From positions 271,774 through 335,773 of the forward strand of contig CAZKLV010000002.1 of assembly GCA_964553945.1 (NCBI GenBank): a stretch of 64,000 nucleotides of DNA, in the 5' to 3' direction. The notes below the pieces were generated by a model. The model ran no database searches. It saw only the letters and a program-made list of their open reading frames with translations, and was not told where the DNA came from. Within the stretch, counting starts at the first letter, position 1. Each line of letters begins with the position of its first letter. This DNA is from an uncultured Pseudomonadota bacterium (GTDB lineage: Bacteria; Babelota; Babeliae; Babelales; Vermiphilaceae). This document shows positions 10,971 to 30,589 of this stretch, one piece after another. The translations under genes were made by a program, and so were the position numbers.

Positions 10971-11924
10971 ATGAAACACCCATTCCTCATCATTATTTTA
11001 TTCAGCATCAGTTCATGCCTTCCTGGCATCTTGAAAGCCATGAATACCCAGGATCGGGAATTGTTTGAGAAATTCTTGGAAAATTATACATATAAGGATA
11101 GGATTCTGAGCAACCTCCAAACCGAAATCAACATTATTCAGGAGGATAAACTCACTCTTTTACAGAAAGCTGCGCTTGAGAAAAACGAAATAATCTGCTG
11201 CAAACTACTTGAAATGGGCGCTAACCCAAATGTTCGCTACCTTGATGATAAACCAGCGCTGCTGATTGCGATTGGGAAACATCTATCGAAAGCAAGTTGC
11301 CTTATGATCCAAAAAGGAGCTTACATCTATATAAGCGATAACAAATCAACAACTTTACAACTCGCCTGCAAAGAAAATCTAACCGATGTTTGCTTGATGC
11401 TCATAGCTAAAGGAGCAAGTGTCGAGTCAAAAGAATTTACTTATACACATCCATTGCAGACAGCAATCGATAAAGATAATTATAGGGTATGCCGAGCATT
11501 GTTAAGACGAAACGCACCGATGGGTAGCAAATTGGATAAACGCTTAGGAGCAACACCTTCAGCGTTGCGATATGCTGCACGGGACAAAAGGGGAAATGCA
11601 TGCCGCGCAATTCTTGCTCATACATTGTTTCAATCAAAAGAACCGATTTTTAAATTACTGCTTATCCTGCGCAGGATGCGCCAATCTCAATTAGATTGTC
11701 CATCATTACTGTATTCAAAGTTCAAAGAACTCATGGCTCGCCCCATGCTCTATATATTAGCAATTGAGAATAGAAATGATCTTATTCAAAAACTTGAGCA
11801 TAACAAGCACTTCAAAGATTTTCCCATCGATCTACTTGATATCATGCATATAGATCAAACTATTCAGGTATTAGTGAAAGAAGAGCTCGATAACATTCAA
11901 AACTCTGAATTAAAGAATGTATAG
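10971..11924 (+). CDS. leader-bearing ankyrin-repeat protein
   Basis: Leader MKHPFLIIILFSISSCLPGILKAM. ANK repeats include LTLLQKAALEKNEIICCKLLEMGANPN and TTLQLACKENLTDVCLMLIAKGASV. Confidence 0.8.
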   Translation: MKHPFLIIILFSISSCLPGILKAMNTQDRELFEKFLENYTYKDRILSNLQTEINIIQEDKLTLLQKAALEKNEIICCKLLEMGANPNVRYLDDKPALLIAIGKHLSKASCLMIQKGAYIYISDNKSTTLQLACKENLTDVCLMLIAKGASVESKEFTYTHPLQTAIDKDNYRVCRALLRRNAPMGSKLDKRLGATPSALRYAARDKRGNACRAILAHTLFQSKEPIFKLLLILRRMRQSQLDCPSLLYSKFKELMARPMLYILAIENRNDLIQKLEHNKHFKDFPIDLLDIMHIDQTIQVLVKEELDNIQNSELKNV

Positions 11925-12883: not shown

Positions 12884-13618
12884 TTATCTTAAGAGGGAAA
12901 CCAATTCATCGATATATTCAATCACTTGAGCTGCAGGACTTCCTTGAAATAATCGCTCATTGGTGGAATTTAGATAATAAAGAGCATAATCATCATCCGA
13001 TTTTACAACAGAGGCGAGCACCCAATGCCCGCCAGCATTGATCACAAAATGCACAACATGATTTTGCAAAATAAGCTCAATGAGCGGTTGTTTTGACGTA
13101 ACATCCTGAAATGAAACAAGCTCCGGCTCGCTCAAATAAATCACATGAAAAGGCATATTATATTTAGCGCGAACATCTTTCTCAGCAATTTCCAATTCAT
13201 GTGGTTCAGCAGGTAAAATACCTTCTCCATTGAGCAATAATTTGAATGAGGCAGATTGCGTCATGATAATTGCAAAACAACATTCGGCATAATAGCGAGT
13301 CGCCTCAGTAGTAATTGGTAATCCTTCAATGCATTGCCGTTCTAGAGCATAGGCATTTGCAAGAGAATTGAATCCACAAGAACTATATATTTGTTGATGA
13401 GAAATAAGATGATGAAGAGGTGTCTTCGTTTTAACAGAGTGTGCAATACTCAATCCATGAGATGCCTCAAAAGCATCGAGCGATTTAACGCGTGCCAAAA
13501 TCATCGCAGTATTGCCAAACCACTTATTTCGCAAACCATTACCTGAGTTTTCCATCGCACAAGCATACGGCGCAATCAGAATAAGATATGAAAAAATAAT
13601 GCGAAATAGACAGTTCAT
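12884..13618 (-). CDS. leader-bearing Josephin-like papain-fold cysteine protease (putative deubiquitinase)
   Basis: Leader MNCLFRIIFSYLILIAPYACAM. Cys motif HQQIYSSCGFNSLANA and His motif GGHWVLASVVKSDDDYALYYLNSTN. The start is trimmed to the Met at 13618. Confidence 0.6.
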   Translation of the reverse strand: MNCLFRIIFSYLILIAPYACAMENSGNGLRNKWFGNTAMILARVKSLDAFEASHGLSIAHSVKTKTPLHHLISHQQIYSSCGFNSLANAYALERQCIEGLPITTEATRYYAECCFAIIMTQSASFKLLLNGEGILPAEPHELEIAEKDVRAKYNMPFHVIYLSEPELVSFQDVTSKQPLIELILQNHVVHFVINAGGHWVLASVVKSDDDYALYYLNSTNERLFQGSPAAQVIEYIDELVSLLR

Positions 13619-13854
13619 AGATAGGACCCCCATTTATGATTATTACATATAGTATCAGCATAGATCAATAAGCCCTACCTGTAAAAAGCCCTTTTTCACC
13701 TTGAATACTATCAACCCTGGGCCGAACCTGGCACCTCAGATATAATTGACAAATATAAAATATAGTATAAATTTATAATATCTGCCTCTTGAATGATTTT
13801 AAGGGGAGAATAGTATTAATAATGGAGCCTAAAACAGATTCAAATGGAGGTCCA

Positions 13855-15144
13855 ATGAAAAAAGTCTCAATTAAATTACTTTTGACCACCCTTCTATTTA
13901 CAGCCTCTCTGGGCGCAATGCAGCATCCAGAAGGCAAAACATCATTACATTTGCATGCCATAGCAAAACGACCAGACTACATTCTGAATATATTAGAAAA
14001 TTATAAAACACCACATATTGATGCACGTGACATCTACGGCAATACCCCTCTGCATGAAGCATGTTATTTTGGTTGTTTTGAATCTGTTTGCATCTTGCTC
14101 GATTTTGGCGCTAATATCAATGCAGTCAACAAAAATGGCCTCACGCCGGTTGATAAAGCATTCAACGGCAAACAAGAGGCAATTTTAGAATTATTACTCG
14201 AATATGGTGGTGTATCCGGGCAACAGATTGCTCCAGGGCGCGTAAAAAATCCGGTGCAACCAAATCCGGTTCAAAAACCAAAGCATCCATTAAACCCGAT
14301 TCAACCGGCTCAAAAAAAACAACCGGTGCCTCAACCAGCTAAAAAAATACAACCAAATCAAAAGCCTGCATACCAACCAATGCCGGCTGCTCCGAAACAT
14401 GCTCAACCAACTGCGCCCAAACATCAACCATACGCTCCGTCAAAAGCTGCAATCGCTCCATGTATATATGACCAGCGCGACTTACTGCACCTTCCAGGAC
14501 TAACAGGCGGCGCATTAAAGCTTCCAGGGGTATACCACGTCTATAGCGAAGCGCCAGTAGCAACCGACAAAGGATGGGCATGCGCATTCCACTCGCTTGA
14601 TAATATGCGCCAGCTTGAATATGAAATTTGCGGACGTCAAATTTCAGATCAAACATTCATCAATGCTTGTACAAAGAATTGCACTACTATCAAAAGCGGC
14701 TCAAACTGCATACAACAATACAAAATTGCTCAACAAATGGGCTTGCCTTACATGATAAATTTAGAAATCAATGATCAAGGGCGAGGCACCGAAATCGTAT
14801 TTAAAAGCGATACGTATTATGAATGGCGCGATGGCGAAAGCGAAGAATACGCCTATCAGCGCGCTGAACGAAATCGCCAAGACCAAGAATGGAACCGACT
14901 AGTTCAATTGTTCAAAACCTCTCGCGAACCAATTTGCATTCACTTCTGCGCAGGAATCATGTCATACCTCATTGATAATCCTGGCAGAGGCGAAGGTCAC
15001 GGGATCGATATCTCCGTAATCAAAGATAAAAATGGCGCCGTAGCACTCTACATATTTGATAACATCAATGACGCTGAAGCACGAACATCTCAAGATGCTA
15101 TTCGTCGGCACGTTGAGTTTATATATCGTAAATTCATAGCGTAA
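13855..15144 (+). CDS. leader + ankyrin repeats + Pro/Gln-rich linker + Josephin-like cysteine-protease domain
   Basis: GGAGG precedes the ATG at 13855. ANK repeats (GNTPLHEACYFGCFESVCILLDFGANINAVNKNGLTPV), a PxQ-rich linker, then GWACAFHSLDN ... GHGIDISVIKDKNGAVALYIFDNIND. Confidence 0.6.
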   Translation: MKKVSIKLLLTTLLFTASLGAMQHPEGKTSLHLHAIAKRPDYILNILENYKTPHIDARDIYGNTPLHEACYFGCFESVCILLDFGANINAVNKNGLTPVDKAFNGKQEAILELLLEYGGVSGQQIAPGRVKNPVQPNPVQKPKHPLNPIQPAQKKQPVPQPAKKIQPNQKPAYQPMPAAPKHAQPTAPKHQPYAPSKAAIAPCIYDQRDLLHLPGLTGGALKLPGVYHVYSEAPVATDKGWACAFHSLDNMRQLEYEICGRQISDQTFINACTKNCTTIKSGSNCIQQYKIAQQMGLPYMINLEINDQGRGTEIVFKSDTYYEWRDGESEEYAYQRAERNRQDQEWNRLVQLFKTSREPICIHFCAGIMSYLIDNPGRGEGHGIDISVIKDKNGAVALYIFDNINDAEARTSQDAIRRHVEFIYRKFIA

Positions 15145-15164: not shown

Positions 15165-15353
15165 ATGGACCCTCTGCAGAAATTAAAACATATTGCATCA
15201 CCATCACTTGCTCAATGTTATCAAGAGTATAAAAACAATCCTCCTTGCATGAAAGTTGATCGCCAAAATCATGCTGAGTGTTGTGGATGCAAAGAGCCAT
15301 GCTGCACCATACAAATACCAGCCATACCAAAAGACCAAAAGGAGCGAGAATGA
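15165..15353 (+). CDS. possible small Cys-rich protein (62 aa), ATGA-coupled to the WD40 gene
   Basis: Open frame MDPLQKLKH...ECCGCKEPCCTIQ with 7 Cys. Its TGA overlaps the ATG at 15350. No homology recognised, so it may be non-coding. Confidence 0.25.
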   Translation: MDPLQKLKHIASPSLAQCYQEYKNNPPCMKVDRQNHAECCGCKEPCCTIQIPAIPKDQKERE

Positions 15354-16825
15354 AGAGAATCATATTGCTTGCTGGATTGCTATTAAATCTTCAGGCGCTC
15401 ATCGCCATGGAGAGACCACCCAAGAGAATGTCAATAGAACAGATCAACACCATAAAACATACGTTTTTAAACGATCATGAAACCTTTAAAAACCTCTATC
15501 AAACTCGCGCGAGGCTACCCCTAGATTTAAGCAAATTACTTGCACAGATGATTATTACTCCCGCAATAAAACTCGCGTGCCAAAACGTAGCTGTTCCGTA
15601 TAAAGTACTTAAGCATAAAGACCGACATGTTGATTGCGCAAAGTTTAACCCGGCAGGAACGGCCATTGTTTCTGGTACACCAGACGGACTTGTACATATA
15701 TGGGATGTTGCAAGCGGTAAAGAAATTCAGACCATCAAAGCTCATGAACACGGCGCTTATGAACATGGTCAAGTCTTGGTAGCAAATTTCAGCCCAAACG
15801 GCCAGCTTATTATTACAGGATCATCACAAGGAACTGCTAAAGTATGGAATTTGCAAGACGGATCCTGCTTATTTACAGCAAATCATCCAAGCGATAAACT
15901 GGGAAGCAGCTTAGTTACAACAGCAGCTTTCAATTCGAGCGATACTGAATTGGTAACGGCATCAAGGAGTGGCTTCGCTTATATATTCACTAACTGGGCA
16001 AAACCAGGAACACCTGCTCTTCATATTAAAGCTGAAAAAGGAATCGCAAAAGCCATGATCCAGCCACACGGAAAGATCATCGCACTTGGTTTAATGAATG
16101 GCAATATTGTGCTCTGGGATTTTAATAAAGGCGAGTGCCTCAAACAACTCGAGGGGCACACCGGATGCATTGACTATGTTCACTTCAATCCAGATGGAAC
16201 CCTTCTTGCCTCAGCAGCAGAAGATAAAACGGTAAAAATATGGGATATCAATACCGGAAAATGTATTCATAACCTCACTCAACACCAAGCAAGAGTATTG
16301 TGCGCTGAGTTCGATTCAACGGGCGCCTTCTTAAGCTCCACAGATACCTGTGGAAACACTAAAATATGGGATGTTTCTACCGGAACATGCTTGCGCACAC
16401 TTGATCTCCATACATGCTTGATTCATATGACTGAACATAGAGATGACCAATGGTTTGCCCGCACAACCTCTAAGCAAGTCCCAGCCCGGGTTCGCTCAGC
16501 ATCATTTAGTCCAGACGGAAAACGCCTTGCAACCGCCTCACATGACTATACAGTGCGAATCTGGGATTTAAAAGACTTCATGGAATCGATCGAATTTCTA
16601 AAAAAGAGCCTTACTCTTGAACAAGCACTCCTTATTAATTTGATCTTTGAAACTGCACAATTAAACAAGCTATGTGAAAAACGCACCAAGAATCCAATCA
16701 CGCACCAACTGGATTTTTCAAAATTTGAACACCTTAAAACCTATTTCCAAGAACTACCCGAGCCAATTCAAAACGCGCTCAAACCATATATAAAACAAAA
16801 AGAAGAGGGCTGTGTAATTTTTTAA
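15350..16825 (+). CDS. leader-bearing WD40 beta-propeller protein with C-terminal CaaX box (CVIF)
   Basis: AAAGGAG precedes the ATG at 15350. Several WD repeats are present (GTPDGLVHIWDV, SSQGTAKVWNL, AAEDKTVKIWDI, DTCGNTKIWDV, ASHDYTVRIWDL). The protein ends in EEGCVIF followed by the stop. Confidence 0.85.
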   Translation: MKRIILLAGLLLNLQALIAMERPPKRMSIEQINTIKHTFLNDHETFKNLYQTRARLPLDLSKLLAQMIITPAIKLACQNVAVPYKVLKHKDRHVDCAKFNPAGTAIVSGTPDGLVHIWDVASGKEIQTIKAHEHGAYEHGQVLVANFSPNGQLIITGSSQGTAKVWNLQDGSCLFTANHPSDKLGSSLVTTAAFNSSDTELVTASRSGFAYIFTNWAKPGTPALHIKAEKGIAKAMIQPHGKIIALGLMNGNIVLWDFNKGECLKQLEGHTGCIDYVHFNPDGTLLASAAEDKTVKIWDINTGKCIHNLTQHQARVLCAEFDSTGAFLSSTDTCGNTKIWDVSTGTCLRTLDLHTCLIHMTEHRDDQWFARTTSKQVPARVRSASFSPDGKRLATASHDYTVRIWDLKDFMESIEFLKKSLTLEQALLINLIFETAQLNKLCEKRTKNPITHQLDFSKFEHLKTYFQELPEPIQNALKPYIKQKEEGCVIF

Positions 16826-16932: not shown

Positions 16933-18192
16933 CTAACTATTAATATACCCATCAAGCATCTGCGCCCATACGCTATCTTGGCCCCATTGAGTTGATGCAT
17001 AATCTGAATCAAGATACGCATTGCGCTCAAAATAAAAACTAATTCCAGAAGCACGTGGAAAATCTGATCCTTTTACTTGCGCAAGAACCGTTGATTTGAG
17101 TGCTTTGACAGCTGCCGCAATCGCATTATTGAGTTGCTTCAGTAATGCTTTGTCACTCACTTTTGCTTTACCAAGATTTGCTTTGAGATTATTCAAAAAA
17201 TCACCAATATCGATAAAACTATTCTCTGTGAAGAAGGTACAACGATTTGGATCGGCGCTTGCTTGAATTGCGAGTTTAATAACATCCGCATCTTTTGAGC
17301 TCAAAAATGATAGAATAACAGTTGCAACATGATCAAGCGCTGCTTTAAAGCCGGCAATTTGAGATAAATCGATTGCAGAAAGCGTGTAATCGGTTGTAAT
17401 GCTGTTATATAATGCGCCGTAATCTTTCACCATATCTTGCGCCATCTTGACAGCTTTAAGATTCGGCTTTGATGCCAAATTCAATGCAGTATCATACGGA
17501 TACCCTTGGCCTGGAATTGTTTCTTCAGATGCAACCAAGTATTTTGCATAAGAGCTGGCCGCATAAGCAACTTCAACATTTGCCATTAAACATGCATCGA
17601 ATGCGACAATATCAACTTTTTTACCGCCGCGTAATTGCACCGCTTGCTCAAGAACCGCGATCAAATCTTGATCGGTAAAATACGATCCGGTTGTATCATC
17701 ATAGCAAAATGCGCGATCCGCCGGAGTGCCCCACGGCTTGCCAAAGAATGTACTCACGAGCCCATTACGATTTAATGGTCCAGAGCCATGGTTCCAGAAA
17801 ACTATCACAAAATTATCTGACGGAAACTTTGACGTTGCCCATGTAACCGCATCGATTGCTGTTTGCGCAGCACCGCTATCCTTATCCATATCAGGGCCAT
17901 CTTGTAGAGCCTGGCCCTTTTGAACAACCAATGCACGAGTCCACTTAGAAGAATTATCTTTTGAGCTGACGTAGGCAAGAATATTCACATTTTGATTCGA
18001 TCCAATCTTTTGCATCTCTTCTAAATCCAAATGAATGAAATCGGCCAAACTATTATCGCCCGCAATATAGACAAGCACCGTTGCTTGTTTTTTGGCAAGC
18101 GGCGATGCTACATCTTTGCGTTGCCATGATAACGCAAATGCGTTCATTGAAATGAGCAAACCAATGCTCAATGATATTTGTTTTTTGTACAT
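16933..18192 (-). CDS. secreted clostripain-family (C11) cysteine peptidase
   Basis: His motif FVIVFWNHGSGP and Cys motif DIVAFDACLMANVE form the C11 catalytic dyad context. N-terminal leader MYKKQISLSIGLLISMNAFA. GGGAG precedes the ATG at 18192. Confidence 0.8.
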   Translation of the reverse strand: MYKKQISLSIGLLISMNAFALSWQRKDVASPLAKKQATVLVYIAGDNSLADFIHLDLEEMQKIGSNQNVNILAYVSSKDNSSKWTRALVVQKGQALQDGPDMDKDSGAAQTAIDAVTWATSKFPSDNFVIVFWNHGSGPLNRNGLVSTFFGKPWGTPADRAFCYDDTTGSYFTDQDLIAVLEQAVQLRGGKKVDIVAFDACLMANVEVAYAASSYAKYLVASEETIPGQGYPYDTALNLASKPNLKAVKMAQDMVKDYGALYNSITTDYTLSAIDLSQIAGFKAALDHVATVILSFLSSKDADVIKLAIQASADPNRCTFFTENSFIDIGDFLNNLKANLGKAKVSDKALLKQLNNAIAAAVKALKSTVLAQVKGSDFPRASGISFYFERNAYLDSDYASTQWGQDSVWAQMLDGYINS

Positions 18193-18276
18193 ATGTGGCT
18201 CCCAGAAAAGAAATGAAACATTTTGTACAGATAATGTGATAAATTTCATAAAGTGACCGCAATAGTTTTGATAGGA

Positions 18277-19347
18277 TCAACAAAAAATATCTCGAAATAC
18301 AAAAGTTAGCCCAGTTGCTTTTGAAAGTTGCGCCCCAATTGCATATTGAACAATGCATGCATTCAATGCTCTCTTTGCAGAAGCTATATTTTTTCTCAAT
18401 TGCCCGTATATCGATTTACCTGCGATTTCTGCTCGTGCAATCTGCGATTGCAGATTGGCTAAAAAATGTCCAAGGTCCAACCGACTTTGTTCCCCGAAGA
18501 AAGTACAATTGCTACAGCAAGAACTTTCGATTAACATTTGTTGCAACATACTCTTGGCACCCTTTAATATTTCATGAACCGAAAGAACAGTCTTATCCAT
18601 TAGCTCTGATAATCTTTGTACCTTGGAAAGATCTATTGCGCAGAGCGAATAGTCACTTCGGATTTGTTCATATCTCTCTTCATATGCATTGCACATATCA
18701 AATGCCATTCTGCCAGCACAGAAGAAAACATCTTTTACCGCATATTTTAATGCCGCAAGATAAGGAAACCAATCGCTCGATTTATACCCCTCAGATGCAA
18801 CCATGAACTTTGCGCAAGGAGCCAACATACGCGCTATCTCCAGACTTGCCATCATATCTGCATCAAATGCAACTAGATCTATCATCGTGCCTCGCACAGC
18901 AAAAAGATACGAGACGATTTGCTGGATTTGCTCGGCGGCAAGGGGCGATCCTCGTGATGATGCACAAAAAACCAAAACAAACTTCTCCGAAGGAAACTTT
19001 TCATGCGCCCAGCGGCAAGCATTGATTCCATTGTTCACCCAAGACTCTTCAACATCAATATTTTCTCGATCCTCAAAGAGGGAAGCCTTATCGCCAATTG
19101 GAGCCTGAATCACTTTTCCCGCACCATTCATTAATGCAGAATAAACTAAGACGTTAACACTTTCAGTTGCAGCAACTTTTTGCAATTCTTTACAAATCAT
19201 TTGGACATAATCAAGCGGAGTGTCTTGCGAAATATAAATCAAAATGGTGACTTGTTTTATCGGACAAGCAGTATTGGTATCTACACACCCAGAAGCGGCA
19301 AAGAAAACAATTTGAAAAAGACCAAAAACAACCACCTTAATATTCAT
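18277..19347 (-). CDS. C11-like pseudo-peptidase (both catalytic residues substituted)
   Basis: Collinear with 16933-18192, but the His motif reads FVLVFCASSRGSP and the Cys motif reads DLVAFDADMMASLE. The leader has a possible lipobox, FFAASGC. Confidence 0.7.
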   Translation of the reverse strand: MNIKVVVFGLFQIVFFAASGCVDTNTACPIKQVTILIYISQDTPLDYVQMICKELQKVAATESVNVLVYSALMNGAGKVIQAPIGDKASLFEDRENIDVEESWVNNGINACRWAHEKFPSEKFVLVFCASSRGSPLAAEQIQQIVSYLFAVRGTMIDLVAFDADMMASLEIARMLAPCAKFMVASEGYKSSDWFPYLAALKYAVKDVFFCAGRMAFDMCNAYEERYEQIRSDYSLCAIDLSKVQRLSELMDKTVLSVHEILKGAKSMLQQMLIESSCCSNCTFFGEQSRLDLGHFLANLQSQIARAEIAGKSIYGQLRKNIASAKRALNACIVQYAIGAQLSKATGLTFVFRDIFC

Positions 19348-27642: not shown

Positions 27643-28755
27643 ATGGCAATTCAAGCAGGCCTGGTTGGCCTTCCAAACGTTGGGAAATCAACCCTTTTTA
27701 ATGCCCTCACCAAATCAAGTGTTCCAGCAGAAAACTACCCTTTTTGTACCATAGACCCTCACTTGGCAATTACCGAAGTACCGGACCCGAATCTCGATAA
27801 ACTCCTGGAAAGCTATGGCTCGCAAAAGAAAATTCCAGCAACGGTCACGTTCGTCGATATCGCAGGGCTCGTTAAGGGTGCCGCTGCCGGCGAAGGCTTG
27901 GGCAACCAGTTTTTAAATCACATTCGGGAAGTCGATTTGATTTTGCATGTACTGCGCTGCTTTGAAAACCAAGATATCATTCATTCTCATGGAGTCATCG
28001 ATCCAATTGCCGATTATGAAACTATTGTGGCCGAACTCATGCTCAAAGATTTAGAATCGGTCGATAAACGCCTCGAACGCTTGCCAAAATATATCAAAAC
28101 GGCAAAAAATCCGGCAGAAAAGAAAGAACTGGAGGATGAGCTTGCTCTGACCGAAAAAATTAAAGCGGCACTTAATGAAGGAAATCCTGAATTGGTGCGC
28201 TCCTATGCGATTCAAGCAACTCAAAGCAAAGTTATTCTCGTCCCGTTGCTCAGCGCAAAAAAATCAATCGTCATTGCCAATATTTCCGAAGACGAAATCG
28301 AATCATACCAAAACAACAAACATTACCAGGCGCTAGTAAATCGATTTGGTGCAAGTAATGTGATTCCTGTCTGCGTTCGCACTGCGTATGAACTTTCACA
28401 GCTCGATGAAGCTGATGCTCTAGAAATGATGGCAATGCTTGGCCTCAAAGAAAAAAGCTTGGATACCATTATTCGCCGTACCTATGAAAACCTTGGCCTC
28501 ATTACCTTCTTCACCTGCGGGCCAAAAGAAGCACACGCCTGGCCAATTCGTAAAGGGATCACCGTTCGCCAAGCAGCCGGCGAGATTCACTCTGATTTAG
28601 AACGTGGATTCATTTGTGCCGAAATCTTCAATTGCAAAGATCTCTTTGAGCTGGGCTCTGTAGCAAAGGTCAAAGAAGTAGGTAAAATGCGAACCGAAGG
28701 CCAAGATTACATCATGAAGGATGGAGATATTATTAACGTGAAATTTAACGTGTAA
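27643..28755 (+). CDS. ychF: ribosome-binding ATPase YchF
   Basis: [45 protein letters not shown] and a C-terminal TGS-like region, [22 protein letters not shown]. Confidence 0.95.
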
Positions 28756-28781
28756 TCTACTACAATTTTTTAAGATCAAAG

Positions 28782-28814
28782 AATGCCACGGCAAAAACCG
28801 TGGCATTTTATTTC
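28782..28814 (+). terminator. intrinsic terminator of ychF
   Basis: aatgccacgg-caaaaa-ccgtggcatt followed by TTATTT. Confidence 0.75.
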
Positions 28815-28903
28815 TAATTGCCATCATCCACCTGCATCCAATTGCATTCCTTTCCCCAAATGCCCATACTAAATGCATAAGCATGTTTTACCGTGGAGTT
28901 TTG

Positions 28904-30493
28904 ATGAATTCAATCAGATTACGATTAACAATTATCGCCCTTTTTGCCCTTCCCACCTCGACCCTGGGAATGAAATATTTTGCCTCTCATCTCTGGAAAT
29001 CACTGACCAACGATTCGAAGGCTGCTCAGGAGGAGCCCTTTGAGTGGCCGGCCGATATCGGTGATGGTACAGCAATTGGTACAAAAATCGCCAAAGCCCT
29101 TGCGAACAAAAGTTATTCGGACCAATTTCTTTTTGGAGCATCAACCTCCGAGCATCAATGCAGCAAACAATGCACCCCTGATATTTGCTCGTGGGAACGG
29201 TTTGCAGAACAAAATAATCTCAAGCATCCATCAGATATACACTATCCCATTGATCTCTGGAACAATTATCGTTCCTATATAACAACCGCCAAAGAAGTAC
29301 TTGGGCTCAACTCACTCCGATTCTCAATCGAATGGGCACTCGTGCAACCCAATGGACCCGATTCATTTGATCAGCGGACCCTTGAACATTATGCCGATAT
29401 ATTTTGCTACTGCATTCAAAAAGGCATAACACCCATCATTTGTTTTCATCATTACACCGATCCATGCTGGTTCATAGACATGGGCGGATTTGAACGCGAA
29501 GAAAACATCGCATACTTTGTGCGCTACTGCGCAACCATCTACCAAACCCTGATGAATCAATTGCGAAGAAATACACGCGCTCGAATCCAATATACATCTG
29601 TGCACCACCCTCTTTTTGCCACCTTCAATTCACCAGAAGGGTATGCATTTAAAGCCTATTTGCAGATGAAAGCACCACCAGCTGATCCAACAAAAAAAGG
29701 GTTGCGACATGTTGCAAATGTACTCAAAAATATGATGGAGGCTCATGTAGCGGTCTATTATGAACTCAAAGAAGTATATGCTACATTCGATCCAATTCTT
29801 AAACAATCGGTGAATGCGCCACAAATTGGATTTTTAAAAAATATCATTCAGCTCGATCCATCGCGCACAACATTTGGCGAGCGCATCATGGCAGGGTTTA
29901 CTCGCATGGCATGCGCGATTGGTAACATGCTCCAAAACGAATGTATTTATCGATTTTTTACACGCGGTGAATTTCGCGTCTATGTACCGGCAAAAGTTGC
30001 GCTTAAACATGTGAATAAATCGGCAATCGGCGCACTCGATTTTATCGGTATCAATTATTACTCCAATCGCTACATGTATTTTGGCACATCTTTAACCGAA
30101 TCAGATGAAACTTATCGTACCGATAACAGCAATTATCGAGTTCATCCACAAGGATTGTATCGTGCCATTGTGGAAGTAAATGATAAGCTCGCCGCTCCGC
30201 TGGGTATACCGATGTATGTGACAGAAAACGGTATTGCAACACATAATGATCAAAAACGAAGCGACTTTTATCGGCATTATCTTTACGCCCTTTCTCGCGC
30301 ACTAGAAGATGGTTATGATGTGCGCGGCTATTTAACCTGGACCTTGGCGGATAATTATGAATGGCCAAATTTAGAAGATAATACTCCTCGAGTATATGGC
30401 TTGTGTTCAGTCAGTGCAACGCGACCATCAGAGTTGGTGCTGAAGGATGGAGGCAAGGCGTATGTGGAGATTGTCAGACAAGTGTTGGGATAA
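28904..30493 (+). CDS. leader-bearing glycoside hydrolase family 1 protein with NSP in place of the NEP acid/base motif
   Basis: GH1 blocks are present: FLFGASTSEHQ, LRFSIEWALVQP, ICFHHYTDP, the nucleophile motif YVTENGIA, and WTLADNYEWP. The acid/base position reads TFNSPEG. GGAG precedes the ATG at 28904. Confidence 0.85.
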   Translation: MNSIRLRLTIIALFALPTSTLGMKYFASHLWKSLTNDSKAAQEEPFEWPADIGDGTAIGTKIAKALANKSYSDQFLFGASTSEHQCSKQCTPDICSWERFAEQNNLKHPSDIHYPIDLWNNYRSYITTAKEVLGLNSLRFSIEWALVQPNGPDSFDQRTLEHYADIFCYCIQKGITPIICFHHYTDPCWFIDMGGFEREENIAYFVRYCATIYQTLMNQLRRNTRARIQYTSVHHPLFATFNSPEGYAFKAYLQMKAPPADPTKKGLRHVANVLKNMMEAHVAVYYELKEVYATFDPILKQSVNAPQIGFLKNIIQLDPSRTTFGERIMAGFTRMACAIGNMLQNECIYRFFTRGEFRVYVPAKVALKHVNKSAIGALDFIGINYYSNRYMYFGTSLTESDETYRTDNSNYRVHPQGLYRAIVEVNDKLAAPLGIPMYVTENGIATHNDQKRSDFYRHYLYALSRALEDGYDVRGYLTWTLADNYEWPNLEDNTPRVYGLCSVSATRPSELVLKDGGKAYVEIVRQVLG

Positions 30494-30497
30494 GGAA

Positions 30498-30589
30498 TGC
30501 CCTTCGAGCACCTCAGGGCGAACGGATTTAATAAAAATTTTTCTGATAAGCCATTCCCTTACCGTTCGTCCCGAGGCGCTCGAGGGACA
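30498..30589. repeat. GC-rich imperfect palindromic extragenic element
   Basis: 28-nt arms tgcccttcgagcacctcagggcgaacgg and ccgttcgtcccgaggcgctcgagggaca match at 23 of 28 positions as an inverted repeat, separated by AT-rich sequence. The ccgttcgt motif recurs at 39287, and ccgctcgt occurs at 38013. Confidence 0.5.

Follow-up and report, generated by a model that had tools for sequence, protein, structure and literature searches.

The 64,000-nucleotide window analysed here (contig CAZKLV010000002.1, positions 271,774 to 335,773, from a member of the Dependentiae) contains four open reading frames, ORF1 to ORF4 (Table 1), that appear from their sequences to form one family of cysteine proteases, ORF2 being its weakest and least secure member. 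We consider it likely that the four are circular permutants of the Ulp1/SENP fold (MEROPS family C48, CE clan), not Josephin proteins, and that they probably serve as deconjugases of ubiquitin-like modifiers (Ubl) of the host. The initial annotation had described them as four Josephin-like deubiquitinases (DUBs); the ORFs were found where it had placed them, and each of the Cys and His motif strings that it quoted occurs verbatim in them. One enzyme family is thereby represented in the window by four copies of different build, one minimal, one fused to ankyrin repeats and two with putative membrane anchors, in a phylum whose members are widespread as parasites of amoebae and flagellates and have hardly been studied.

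The argument for a permuted C48 fold begins with the order of the conserved elements. Canonical C48 proteases run from a WLND helix through a His-Trp strand, an Asp-Ser strand and a further helix to a Gln and the Cys helix. The window family runs instead from Gln...Cys through GxWR and GDWL to His-Trp...Asp-Ser and a C-terminal helix, which is the papain order, with the strand-Gln-Cys-helix unit at the N-terminus of the domain. The canonical Ulp1/SENP succession of catalytic residues (His, Asp, (Gln), Cys) is absent and all members show Gln, Cys, His and Asp/Asn; the family is therefore a permuted relative of C48 and not a canonical member. The blocks themselves agree with those of Ulp1/SENP (C48, PF02902) and of CidB, NopD, ElaD/SseL, the SidE DUB and ChlaDUB1/Cdu1: the WL, His-Trp and Asp-Ser blocks with the adjoining helix are the same, a Gln stands 5-6 residues before Cys-Gly at a helix start in Ulp1/SENP and in the CE-clan effectors as it does here, and the Trp pair of the Ulp1/SENP Gly-Gly tunnel is also found in ORF3 and ORF4. 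The window family differs from the canonical CE clan in its order (Gln-Cys...His-Asp, compared with His-Asp-Gln-Cys) and in long helical and beta stretches inserted between its Cys and WL helices, and no member passes the Pfam threshold for C48.

Comparison of the family profile with all PDB sequences returned chains of the CE clan together with one unrelated RNA helicase (E=0.076). The top match, the DUB of Wolbachia CidB (7fiu, E=8e-4), aligned as two stretches in swapped order, with family positions 252-284 on CidB 125-157 (HW..DS) and family positions 91-132 on CidB 165-207 (Q..CG); SENP1 was matched at E=0.17 and NopD at E=1.3-2. The native family hidden Markov model (HMM) placed dWLdddeI on N-W465-LNDEI and HW..DS on H533-W534..D550-S of SENP1 within one domain, scoring 17.5 bits, whereas shuffled sequences reached 5.7 at most and ataxin-3 (ATXN3) had a negative score (-1 bits). 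Because the CidB stretches are swapped and the WL and HW..DS blocks align with SENP1, the C48 blocks are present in the cyclic order C-A-B, not A-B-C. Pfam searches of 120 native relatives found Peptidase_C48 weakly in 5 and ElaD/SseL_C in 1.

We then compared native sequences directly with de-permuted ones, in which the N-terminal Gln/Cys block had been moved behind the C-terminal helix; 24 diverse members were treated in this way, and the same 24 in native form were the control. The de-permuted profile matched SENP8/NEDP1 in the PDB (E=0.0068 and 0.0088) over one colinear stretch (family 86-225, SENP8 93-208) that covers His-Trp, Asp, Gln, Cys-Gly and the downstream GEW, whereas the native-order control profile found only NopD, at E=1-2.2. 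In Pfam, Peptidase_C48 was matched by 5 of the 24 de-permuted members (best 9.6e-4) and by 2 of the 24 native ones (best 0.043), and ElaD/SseL_C by 3 (best 1.2e-5) and 2 (best 0.0019), respectively, so that E-values for both families improved by ~50- to 150-fold; SidE_DUB was matched by one de-permuted member. The hhalign probability for SENP1 was 40.7% over 80 columns after de-permutation and 3% over 42 columns before it. For ORF3 itself, the sole Pfam match of the de-permuted sequence was Peptidase_C48 (PF02902; E=0.027, 14.8 bits, cutoff 20.7), and the match crosses the artificial junction (profile positions 94-188), whereas native ORF3 gave no C48 match at Pfam E≤1. De-permuted ORF1, ORF2 and ORF4, taken singly, gave no C48 match, and a first realignment of the de-permuted set with fast MAFFT yielded a bloated 501-node model with a lower score. 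Overall, the scores move in the predicted direction against the matched control.

In the AlphaFold2 models of ORF1 (predicted local distance difference test, pLDDT, 68.5) and of the ORF3 domain (pLDDT 84.4, predicted template-modelling score 0.83) alike, a helix begins at the Cys and a strand at the His, and the following strand ends at the Asp/Asn, a modelled secondary-structure logic that is papain-like. The earlier proposal of papain-type Cys/His/(Asp/Asn) proteases is supported, with Gln preceding Cys in three of the four ORFs. Foldseek searches with both models against 350,542 PDB chains gave no match at E≤0.001. The weak matches of ORF1 comprised CidB, SENP1, SseL, OtDUB (probability 0.77), a Ulp1-like protein, PopP2, poxvirus I7L and Lem17, and those of ORF3 were RavZ (top) and NopD; CE-clan proteins recur among them alongside unrelated folds, with E of 0.02-0.7 and template-modelling (TM) scores below 0.3, in comparisons that are order-dependent. 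The ORF3 model found nothing at E≤0.001 in BFVD, where the list was uninformative, and phmmer and hmmsearch with ORF3 and its subfamily found nothing meaningful in the PDB. Taken singly the signals are modest; they are consistent, and they point almost exclusively to one clan among ~25,000 Pfam families and 177,635 PDB sequences. We regard family membership, motif order, CE-clan affinity, architectures and synteny (described below) as established.

The same motifs can be read in the opposite evolutionary direction, as those of an independent papain-order (CA-clan-like) family whose likeness to C48 is convergent or inherited from a deep common origin of the CA and CE clans; the family would then be an "unpermuted" or ancestor-like CE relative and not the product of a secondary permutation of a Ulp1 gene. 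Since CE-clan proteases are themselves viewed as papain folds that underwent circular permutation (PMC7391069), a papain-order family with CE-like motifs is just what an unpermuted CE relative should look like, and every C48 similarity score is marginal. We nevertheless judge this direction improbable: the WL helix, HW..DS with the next helix, Q..CG and GEW are held in common with C48/SENP8 in cyclic order, no CA-clan family appeared in any search apart from a single PF02099 match (E=0.0098), and the genomes and metagenomes in which the family has been encountered to date are all Dependentiae-like, a distribution that suits a late rearrangement specific to one lineage. The two accounts part in evolutionary direction only, and the predicted mechanism is the same for both.

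The Josephin assignment made by the initial annotation fared worse, and we hold it very improbable that these proteins are Josephin-like (MEROPS C86, CA clan) deubiquitinases akin to ataxin-3, JOSD1/2 and the bacterial Josephins. The likeness that suggested it extends to the order of the catalytic residues and the local look of the motifs; the best local hhalign alignments to ataxin-3 fall on the homologous Cys or His motif, PF02099 touches 1 of 120 relatives (E=0.0098, below threshold), and amoeba-associated bacteria do carry Josephins as effectors, which is the role proposed here for the window proteins. Bacterial Josephins, a family of their own that has been characterised, are known from Simkania, Parachlamydia and Burkholderia, and some are ubiquitin C-terminal clippases (Hermanns et al. 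2024 preprint, bioRxiv 10.1101/2024.07.24.604956). Yet no test gave a significant sequence, profile or fold match between the Josephin domain and the window family. PF02099 matched none of the four ORFs at E≤1; three family profiles retrieved no Josephin chain at E≤10 from the PDB sequences, a set that contains eukaryotic Josephins; and no Josephin was among the best Foldseek matches listed for the AlphaFold2 models of ORF1 and ORF3. When each subfamily and the broad family were aligned by hhalign to ataxin-3 (a query checked to be identical to 1YZB/2AGA), probabilities were 0.6-2.4% and a single motif was aligned, never both, despite their colinear order, and the HMM score of ATXN3 was negative, as given above; CE-clan families scored higher although they can be aligned colinearly only in part. 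The succession Gln, Cys, His-Trp, Asn/Asp is indeed present in ORF1, ORF3 and ORF4, as the initial annotation had said, but it is not specific to Josephins: Gln-Cys...His-Trp...Asn is common to any permuted CE-clan or CA-clan enzyme, and the resemblance is explained by the permutation, which gives a CE-clan protease back the papain order Gln-Cys...His-Trp...Asp/Asn-Ser. A short-motif resemblance of the form QxxxC...HW...NS is unable to separate Josephins from permuted CE-clan enzymes.

The kinship of the four ORFs is uneven. ORF3 and ORF4 are recognisable by BLASTP (6e-24), while pairwise BLAST detected no similarity between ORF1 and ORF2 or between either of them and ORF3/4, and in pairwise or small-profile comparisons the similarity of ORF1 and ORF2 is confined to the His motif. 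A family HMM built without the window sequences ranked ORF3 (2e-61), ORF4 (2e-44) and ORF1 (1.5e-5) as the top three of the 109 ORFs of the window, with ORF2 ranking 4th to 6th (E=0.04-0.11) and no fifth family member among the 109. In hhalign, the ORF1 subfamily aligned with the broad 120-member profile at 94.9% (E=4e-8, 176 columns), from the strand before Cys through the C-terminal helix; the ORF2 subfamily aligned with this profile at 91.4% (E=9e-7) over the His block only, and with the ORF3 subfamily at 62% over both blocks. Because the window-free HMM and hhalign place all four together, the earlier reading of four related proteins is correct at the level of one family defined by profiles; paralogy in the strict sense can be claimed for ORF3 and ORF4 only.

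An exhaustive hmmsearch with a trimmed ORF3-subfamily profile retrieved 329 cluster representatives at E≤1e-3 (97 of them at E≤1e-10), giving a family of at least 329 clusters at 50% identity, and the matches usually run from the Cys block to the His block. The residues Q, Q, C, Y, W, H, W, D and S are near-invariant in the 120-member alignment, whose consensus is V..Q....ASCGYHALKN ... G.WR ... G.WL...EI..L ... Y.H.F ... GHW...V......Y..ADS.N, and the second Trp (GxWL) is present in 97% of a cleaner 69-member alignment. The conserved columns read Q..Q.....C.YHA.KN, G.WR, GDWL, H.F and GHW...V......W..A(D/N)S in the ORF3/4 subfamily, SH.Q...SCGFN.L.NA, HFxxN, HW..S and Y.LY.LNS.N in the ORF1 subfamily, and YHVYS.A.VA...WACAFH..DNMR, GE.HGI..S and YIFDN.N in the ORF2 subfamily. 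Close relatives numbered 12 for ORF3 and 9 for ORF1; for the C-terminal domain of ORF2, a word-indexed search gave one relative and the neighbour genes of metagenome loci two more. Full-length ankyrin-protease homologues of ORF2 are encoded at L002:4419-5684 (52% identity) and L001:6777-7916 (41%). Pfam found no domain on the catalytic region of the close ORF1, ORF2 or ORF3 relatives, Pfam and NCBIfam scans of the four native ORFs gave ankyrin matches only and no AAA domain, and we found no Pfam model for the family; one member carries an annotation, as a hypothetical protein of Candidatus Babeliales. A profile scan of genome contigs with the ORF3-family alignment produced 137 pattern matches, none of which was confirmed.

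A domain of this kind has been mentioned once, in one species: a computational study of Babela massiliensis described a circularly permuted Ulp1 peptidase of the C48 family with signal peptides (Pagnier 2015, Biol Direct 10:13, PMC4378268), considered it unique to that bacterium and noted inactivated members. Its supplementary HHpred alignments place residues 28-62 ('..Q..sscGYHALYN') on PF02902 positions 148-182 and residues 280-391 ('..HWITcV...FIFADSLg') on positions 2-135 (PMC4378268). The window proteins belong to this family, because P0127, a relative with the Babela-type AAA fusion (protease domain 65-405, AAA 465-586), is a member of the same HMM family (ORF3-family HMM, E=4e-10). The two sets share phylum, motif order, near-identical motifs, signal peptides and multiple copies. 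ORF3 and ORF4 carry the Babela-type motifs Q..(s)sCGYHAL.N and HW..V...(A)DS verbatim, the motifs of ORF1 and ORF2 are degenerate, and compared with the Babela proteins these two represent much more divergent subfamilies. The Babela proteins are fused to AAA ATPase domains, whereas those of the window are membrane-anchored with a GNSAC module (ORF3/4), ankyrin-fused (ORF2) or minimal (ORF1); the AAA fusion is a trait of the Babela subfamily and not of the peptidase domain. The enzyme is of a known but obscure kind, which the window extends by new architectures and by two divergent subfamilies, and a family thought in 2015 to be confined to Babela is now large and occupies conserved genomic positions.

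The predicted function follows from the residues around the active site. In SENP1 the substrate Gly-Gly is floored by Trp534 and lidded by Trp465 (PMC5030089), and DUB and ubiquitin-like protease (ULP) families are enriched in an aromatic residue that follows the catalytic His and acts as a gatekeeper (PMC7391069). Both positions of this clamp are occupied by Trp in ORF3 (W288/W409) and ORF4 (W272/W334), where they align in the HMM with SENP1 W465/W534; ORF1 retains the His-Trp only, and ORF2 has neither. Because the conserved His-Trp is the gatekeeper typical of proteases of ubiquitin (Ub) and Ubl, a host Ub/Ubl target is the best guess. Of the earlier idea of effectors aimed at host ubiquitin, this part is retained as probable, with the gatekeeper and the export signals in its favour, and the Josephin identity is not supported. 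From their full set of Gln, Cys, His and Asp and both SENP1-type tryptophans, ORF3 and ORF4 are predicted to be active enzymes with Gly-Gly specificity that deconjugate a ubiquitin-like modifier (SUMO, NEDD8 or ubiquitin) and would be held at a membrane by the N-terminal hydrophobic anchor. ORF1, with Gln, Cys, His-Trp and Asn and without the lid Trp, would probably be active with an altered S-site, while ORF2, with Cys, His and Asp only, may have another specificity or be a weak or inactive enzyme, and its ankyrin repeats may recruit the host target. Catalytic activity, a Ubl substrate, export to the host and membrane topology are what we infer. On a further reading, which we hold to be less likely than not, the papain-order Ulp1-like family would be a major and wholly uncharacterised class of Ub/Ubl-directed enzymes, specific to protist parasites of the Dependentiae type. 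Its rearranged substrate channel and its divergent subfamilies (ORF1 with no lid Trp, ORF2 with neither Trp but with ankyrin targeting) could then confer specificities or modes of cleavage foreign to canonical CE-clan enzymes, for instance action on another Ubl, a displaced 'clippase' cut or a transfer reaction in place of proteolysis.

The host side of this prediction derives from the organism. The DnaK encoded in the window is closest to that of Candidatus Babeliaceae/Dependentiae metagenome-assembled genomes (73-78% identity; chromosomes of 1.3-1.5 Mb). Cultured Dependentiae are obligate intracellular parasites of protists, and in C. destructans (Chromulinavorax) signal peptides are found in 44% of coding sequences and in 78% of ankyrin proteins (PMC6561590); in Babela they occur in 79 of 126 ankyrin proteins (PMC4378268). 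We infer a protist host because the window belongs to this phylum, whose members are obligate protist parasites with Sec leaders on nearly half of the proteome. Export leaders had been claimed for all four ORFs, and a hydrophobic N-terminus was found in 4 of 4; such leaders are typical of the lineage and fit secreted effectors, and taken alone they are weak evidence.

Leaders of this type bear also on a second explanation of function, in which the CE-type fold has no Ubl protease activity and serves as an acetyltransferase (YopJ/ChlaDUB1-like) or as a general or processing protease that acts in the periplasm on bacterial envelope or secreted proteins, ORF2 possibly being a dead binding module. 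By itself a Sec leader takes a protein no further than the periplasm; acetyltransferases and dual enzymes are among the known CE-clan effectors (PMC10318531); in three genomes a family gene adjoins a gene for an outer-membrane-protein-like product and secreted glycosidases; and ORF2 lacks Gln and both Trp, in a family with inactivated members in Babela (PMC4378268). We consider this explanation unlikely, since both Trp of the Gly-Gly clamp and the His-Trp gatekeeper, which are enriched in Ub/Ubl proteases, are near-invariant in the family and kept in ORF3/4, the ankyrin fusion suggests a eukaryotic target, and the organisms are obligate intracellular parasites with secreted eukaryote-like proteins.

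Several observations weigh against a permuted Ulp1-like family of host-directed deconjugases. No single CE-clan match reaches a curated threshold, and E-values in the PDB searches were 1e-3 to 1e-2 at best. The fold assignment comes mainly from sequence profiles, because the Foldseek matches have E>0.02 and TM<0.3, and the Cys-His-Asp geometry is that suggested by secondary-structure positions only in the models. Permuting the columns of the HMM lifted the SENP1 score by only 0.8 bits, with the alignment extended through the Cys block, and yeast Ulp1, represented by an unverified sequence, was not detected (~4 bits). ORF2 is without Gln and both Trp and is linked to the family chiefly by its His block. 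In ORF3/4 the leader, a strongly basic loop and the second transmembrane segment are compatible with a catalytic domain on either side of the membrane. We found no published biochemistry or activity assay of any family member. To our knowledge, the Dependentiae have no recognised effector secretion system, and we know of no secretion route from them into the host.

Two other effector systems are instructive for comparison with the permuted Ulp1-like proteins. Cdu1 is located at the inclusion membrane with its DUB domain toward the host cytosol (PMC5370187), and ORF3/4 are Cdu1/ChlaDUB1-like in joining an N-terminal hydrophobic anchor to a protease domain. EmcB/CoxDUB of Legionellales are circularly permuted OTU DUBs and active effectors (PNAS 2025, PMC12501173). 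They provide a precedent for a permuted eukaryote-type DUB fold in the effectors of intracellular bacteria, with activity kept, and differ in their OTU parent fold, in the opposite rearrangement (the Cys helix moved to the C-terminus) and in being translocated by Dot/Icm and not equipped with a Sec leader. An EmcB-type permuted OTU domain was considered for the window family and rejected on account of this opposite order and the lack of OTU matches; UCH, MINDY and C39 double-glycine peptidases were likewise rejected, as they gave no profile or fold matches. Should the window proteins prove to be active in Ubl deconjugation, the bacterial DUB/ULP repertoire would gain a class with a rearranged structure, and the proteins would be candidate research tools, as bacterial Josephin clippases are, and would provide a natural test case for how circular permutation reshapes the active-site channel of a protease.

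Table 1. Window positions of the four ORFs, their segments and their motif residues (aa, amino acids).
Feature	Positions	Strand	Residues	Remarks
ORF1	12884-13618	minus	244 aa	minimal, divergent member of the putative permuted Ulp1-like family
ORF1 leader	13556-13618		aa 1-21	
ORF1 Gln	13391-13393		Gln76 (or Gln75)	predicted catalytic
ORF1 Cys	13376-13378		Cys81	predicted catalytic
ORF1 His-Trp	13022-13027		His198-Trp199	predicted
ORF1 Asn-Ser	12965-12970		Asn217-Ser218	predicted
ORF1/ORF2 intergenic region	13619-13854			236 bp, between divergent genes; presumed site of both promoters
ORF2	13855-15144	plus	429 aa	ankyrin-fused member
ORF2 leader	13855-13917		aa 1-21	
ORF2 ankyrin repeats	13939-14211		~aa 29-119	Pfam Ank_2, E=8e-18
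ORF2 linker	14242-14451		~aa 130-199	Pro/Gln-rich
ORF2 protease domain	14497-15141		~aa 215-429	putative, divergent
ORF2 Cys	14581-14583		Cys243	
ORF2 His	14998-15000		His382	
ORF2 Asp	15058-15060		Asp402	
ORF3	30669-32045	minus	458 aa	membrane-anchored member
ORF3 leader or first transmembrane segment	31965-32045		aa 1-27	followed by Lys/Arg-rich segment
ORF3 second transmembrane segment	31686-31739		aa 103-120	
ORF3 GNSAC motif	31629-31643		aa 135-139	invariant, in beta-rich module
ORF3 permuted Ulp1-like domain			~aa 200-458	putative
ORF3 Gln	31410-31412		Gln212	
ORF3 Cys	31392-31394		Cys218	
ORF3 Trp	31182-31184		Trp288	GDWL
ORF3 His-Trp	30819-30824		His408-Trp409	
ORF3 Asp-Ser	30759-30764		Asp428-Ser429	
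ORF4	33795-34922	minus	375 aa	paralogue of ORF3
ORF4 leader	34842-34922		aa 1-27	
ORF4 transmembrane segment	34701-34751		aa 58-74	
ORF4 GNSLC motif			aa 93-97	
ORF4 Cys	34314-34316		Cys203	
ORF4 Trp	34107-34109		Trp272	GDWL
ORF4 His-Trp	33921-33926		His333-Trp334	
ORF4 Asp-Ser	33864-33869		Asp352-Ser353	

The architectures summarised in Table 1 agree with the initial annotation in two further respects: ORF2 is fused to ankyrin repeats through a Pro/Gln-rich linker, and in both ORF3 and ORF4 a further hydrophobic segment forms an additional transmembrane anchor. ORF1 is without the WL tryptophan, has Asn where Asp would be expected, and is without an N-terminal helical region of ~130 aa that is present in 8 of 8 homologues. 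It is ~60-170 aa shorter than the homologues P0014-P0021, the missing part being an acidic helical region between the leader and a conserved NKWF motif. The region between ORF1 and ORF2 contains sigma-70-like matches at 13746-13773 (plus) and at 13685-13657 and 13668-13639 (minus), and a promoter and terminator scan of this region gave counts no higher than the shuffled expectation. In ORF2 the Gln, the WL Trp and the gatekeeper Trp are all missing, and His-Gly (H382-G383) takes the place of His-Trp. When ORF2 was de-permuted, its Cys motif DKGWACAFH (aa 238-246, 14566-14592) aligned over 16 residues with Peptidase_C78 (UfSP), a non-significant match (E=0.1), and the Asp-x-His that lies downstream in C78 is missing.

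Long beta hairpins make up an additional N-terminal module in the ORF3/4 subfamily (31448-31661, ORF3 aa 129-200; 34323-34661, ORF4 aa 88-200). The strands of this module occupy residues 2-79 of the trimmed AlphaFold2 model, it carries an invariant Ser..Cys (GNSAC/GNSLC), and relatives of the module were detected within the subfamily only. In P0005, an ORF3 homologue from JGI, a segment of ~28 aa around GNSAC is tandemly duplicated, so that PWIRVPNVVGNSACDVQQAIVPQNEVREITHH occurs twice.

The genomic surroundings of ORF3 and ORF4 are conserved. At locus L083 the order is a gene for an outer-membrane-protein-like (OMP-like) product, an ORF4-like gene, a glycoside hydrolase family 3 (GH3) gene, an ORF3-like gene with an extra tandem copy, a GH1 gene and YchF, which mirrors the window at 27.6-36.7 kb, and the more distant locus L084 has a single member of 295 aa at the same site. 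Given this conserved synteny, the family is a stable, locally expanding component of these genomes. The block spans 27643-36730 in the window, L083:3177-13824 and L084:8169-13722; the OMP-like protein has 575-585 aa, the glycosidases (GH3 and/or GH1) have leaders, and the number of protease copies at this OMP-GH-YchF site is one in L084, two in the window and three in L083.

The divergent pair has a counterpart at L002, where homologues of ORF1 and ORF2 likewise point away from each other next to two C11 peptidase genes. In the window the two clostripain-like Peptidase_C11 genes stand in tandem on the minus strand near ORF1/ORF2 (16933-18249, E=2e-51; 18277-19347, E=5e-15); a C11 gene is also found near the ORF1/ORF2-type homologues at L001, and two C11 peptidases are reported for Babela. 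Between ORF2 and the C11 genes of the window lies a plus-strand ORF (15278-16825) for a WD40 beta-propeller of the seven-bladed type (WD40, E=1e-45), the N-terminus of which resembles a signal leader and which is missing from that position in L002. At the metagenome locus L001 (636-4012 and 6777-8816), two genes for thiol-activated cytolysins (PF01289) lie a few kb upstream of the ankyrin-protease gene (379 aa), and a tandem copy that lacks the ankyrin repeats (P0022, 271 aa) comes directly after it. Finally, at least 10 ankyrin-repeat genes are densely arrayed at 44761-60907 of the window, and another lies at 10971-11924; the ankyrin profile of ORF2 matched the ORFs beginning at 44761, 47688, 49407, 50965, 52227, 53051, 54712, 57579, 58544 and 59735 with E of 1e-19 to 1e-6, and the array resembles the 'island' described for Babela and Chromulinavorax.

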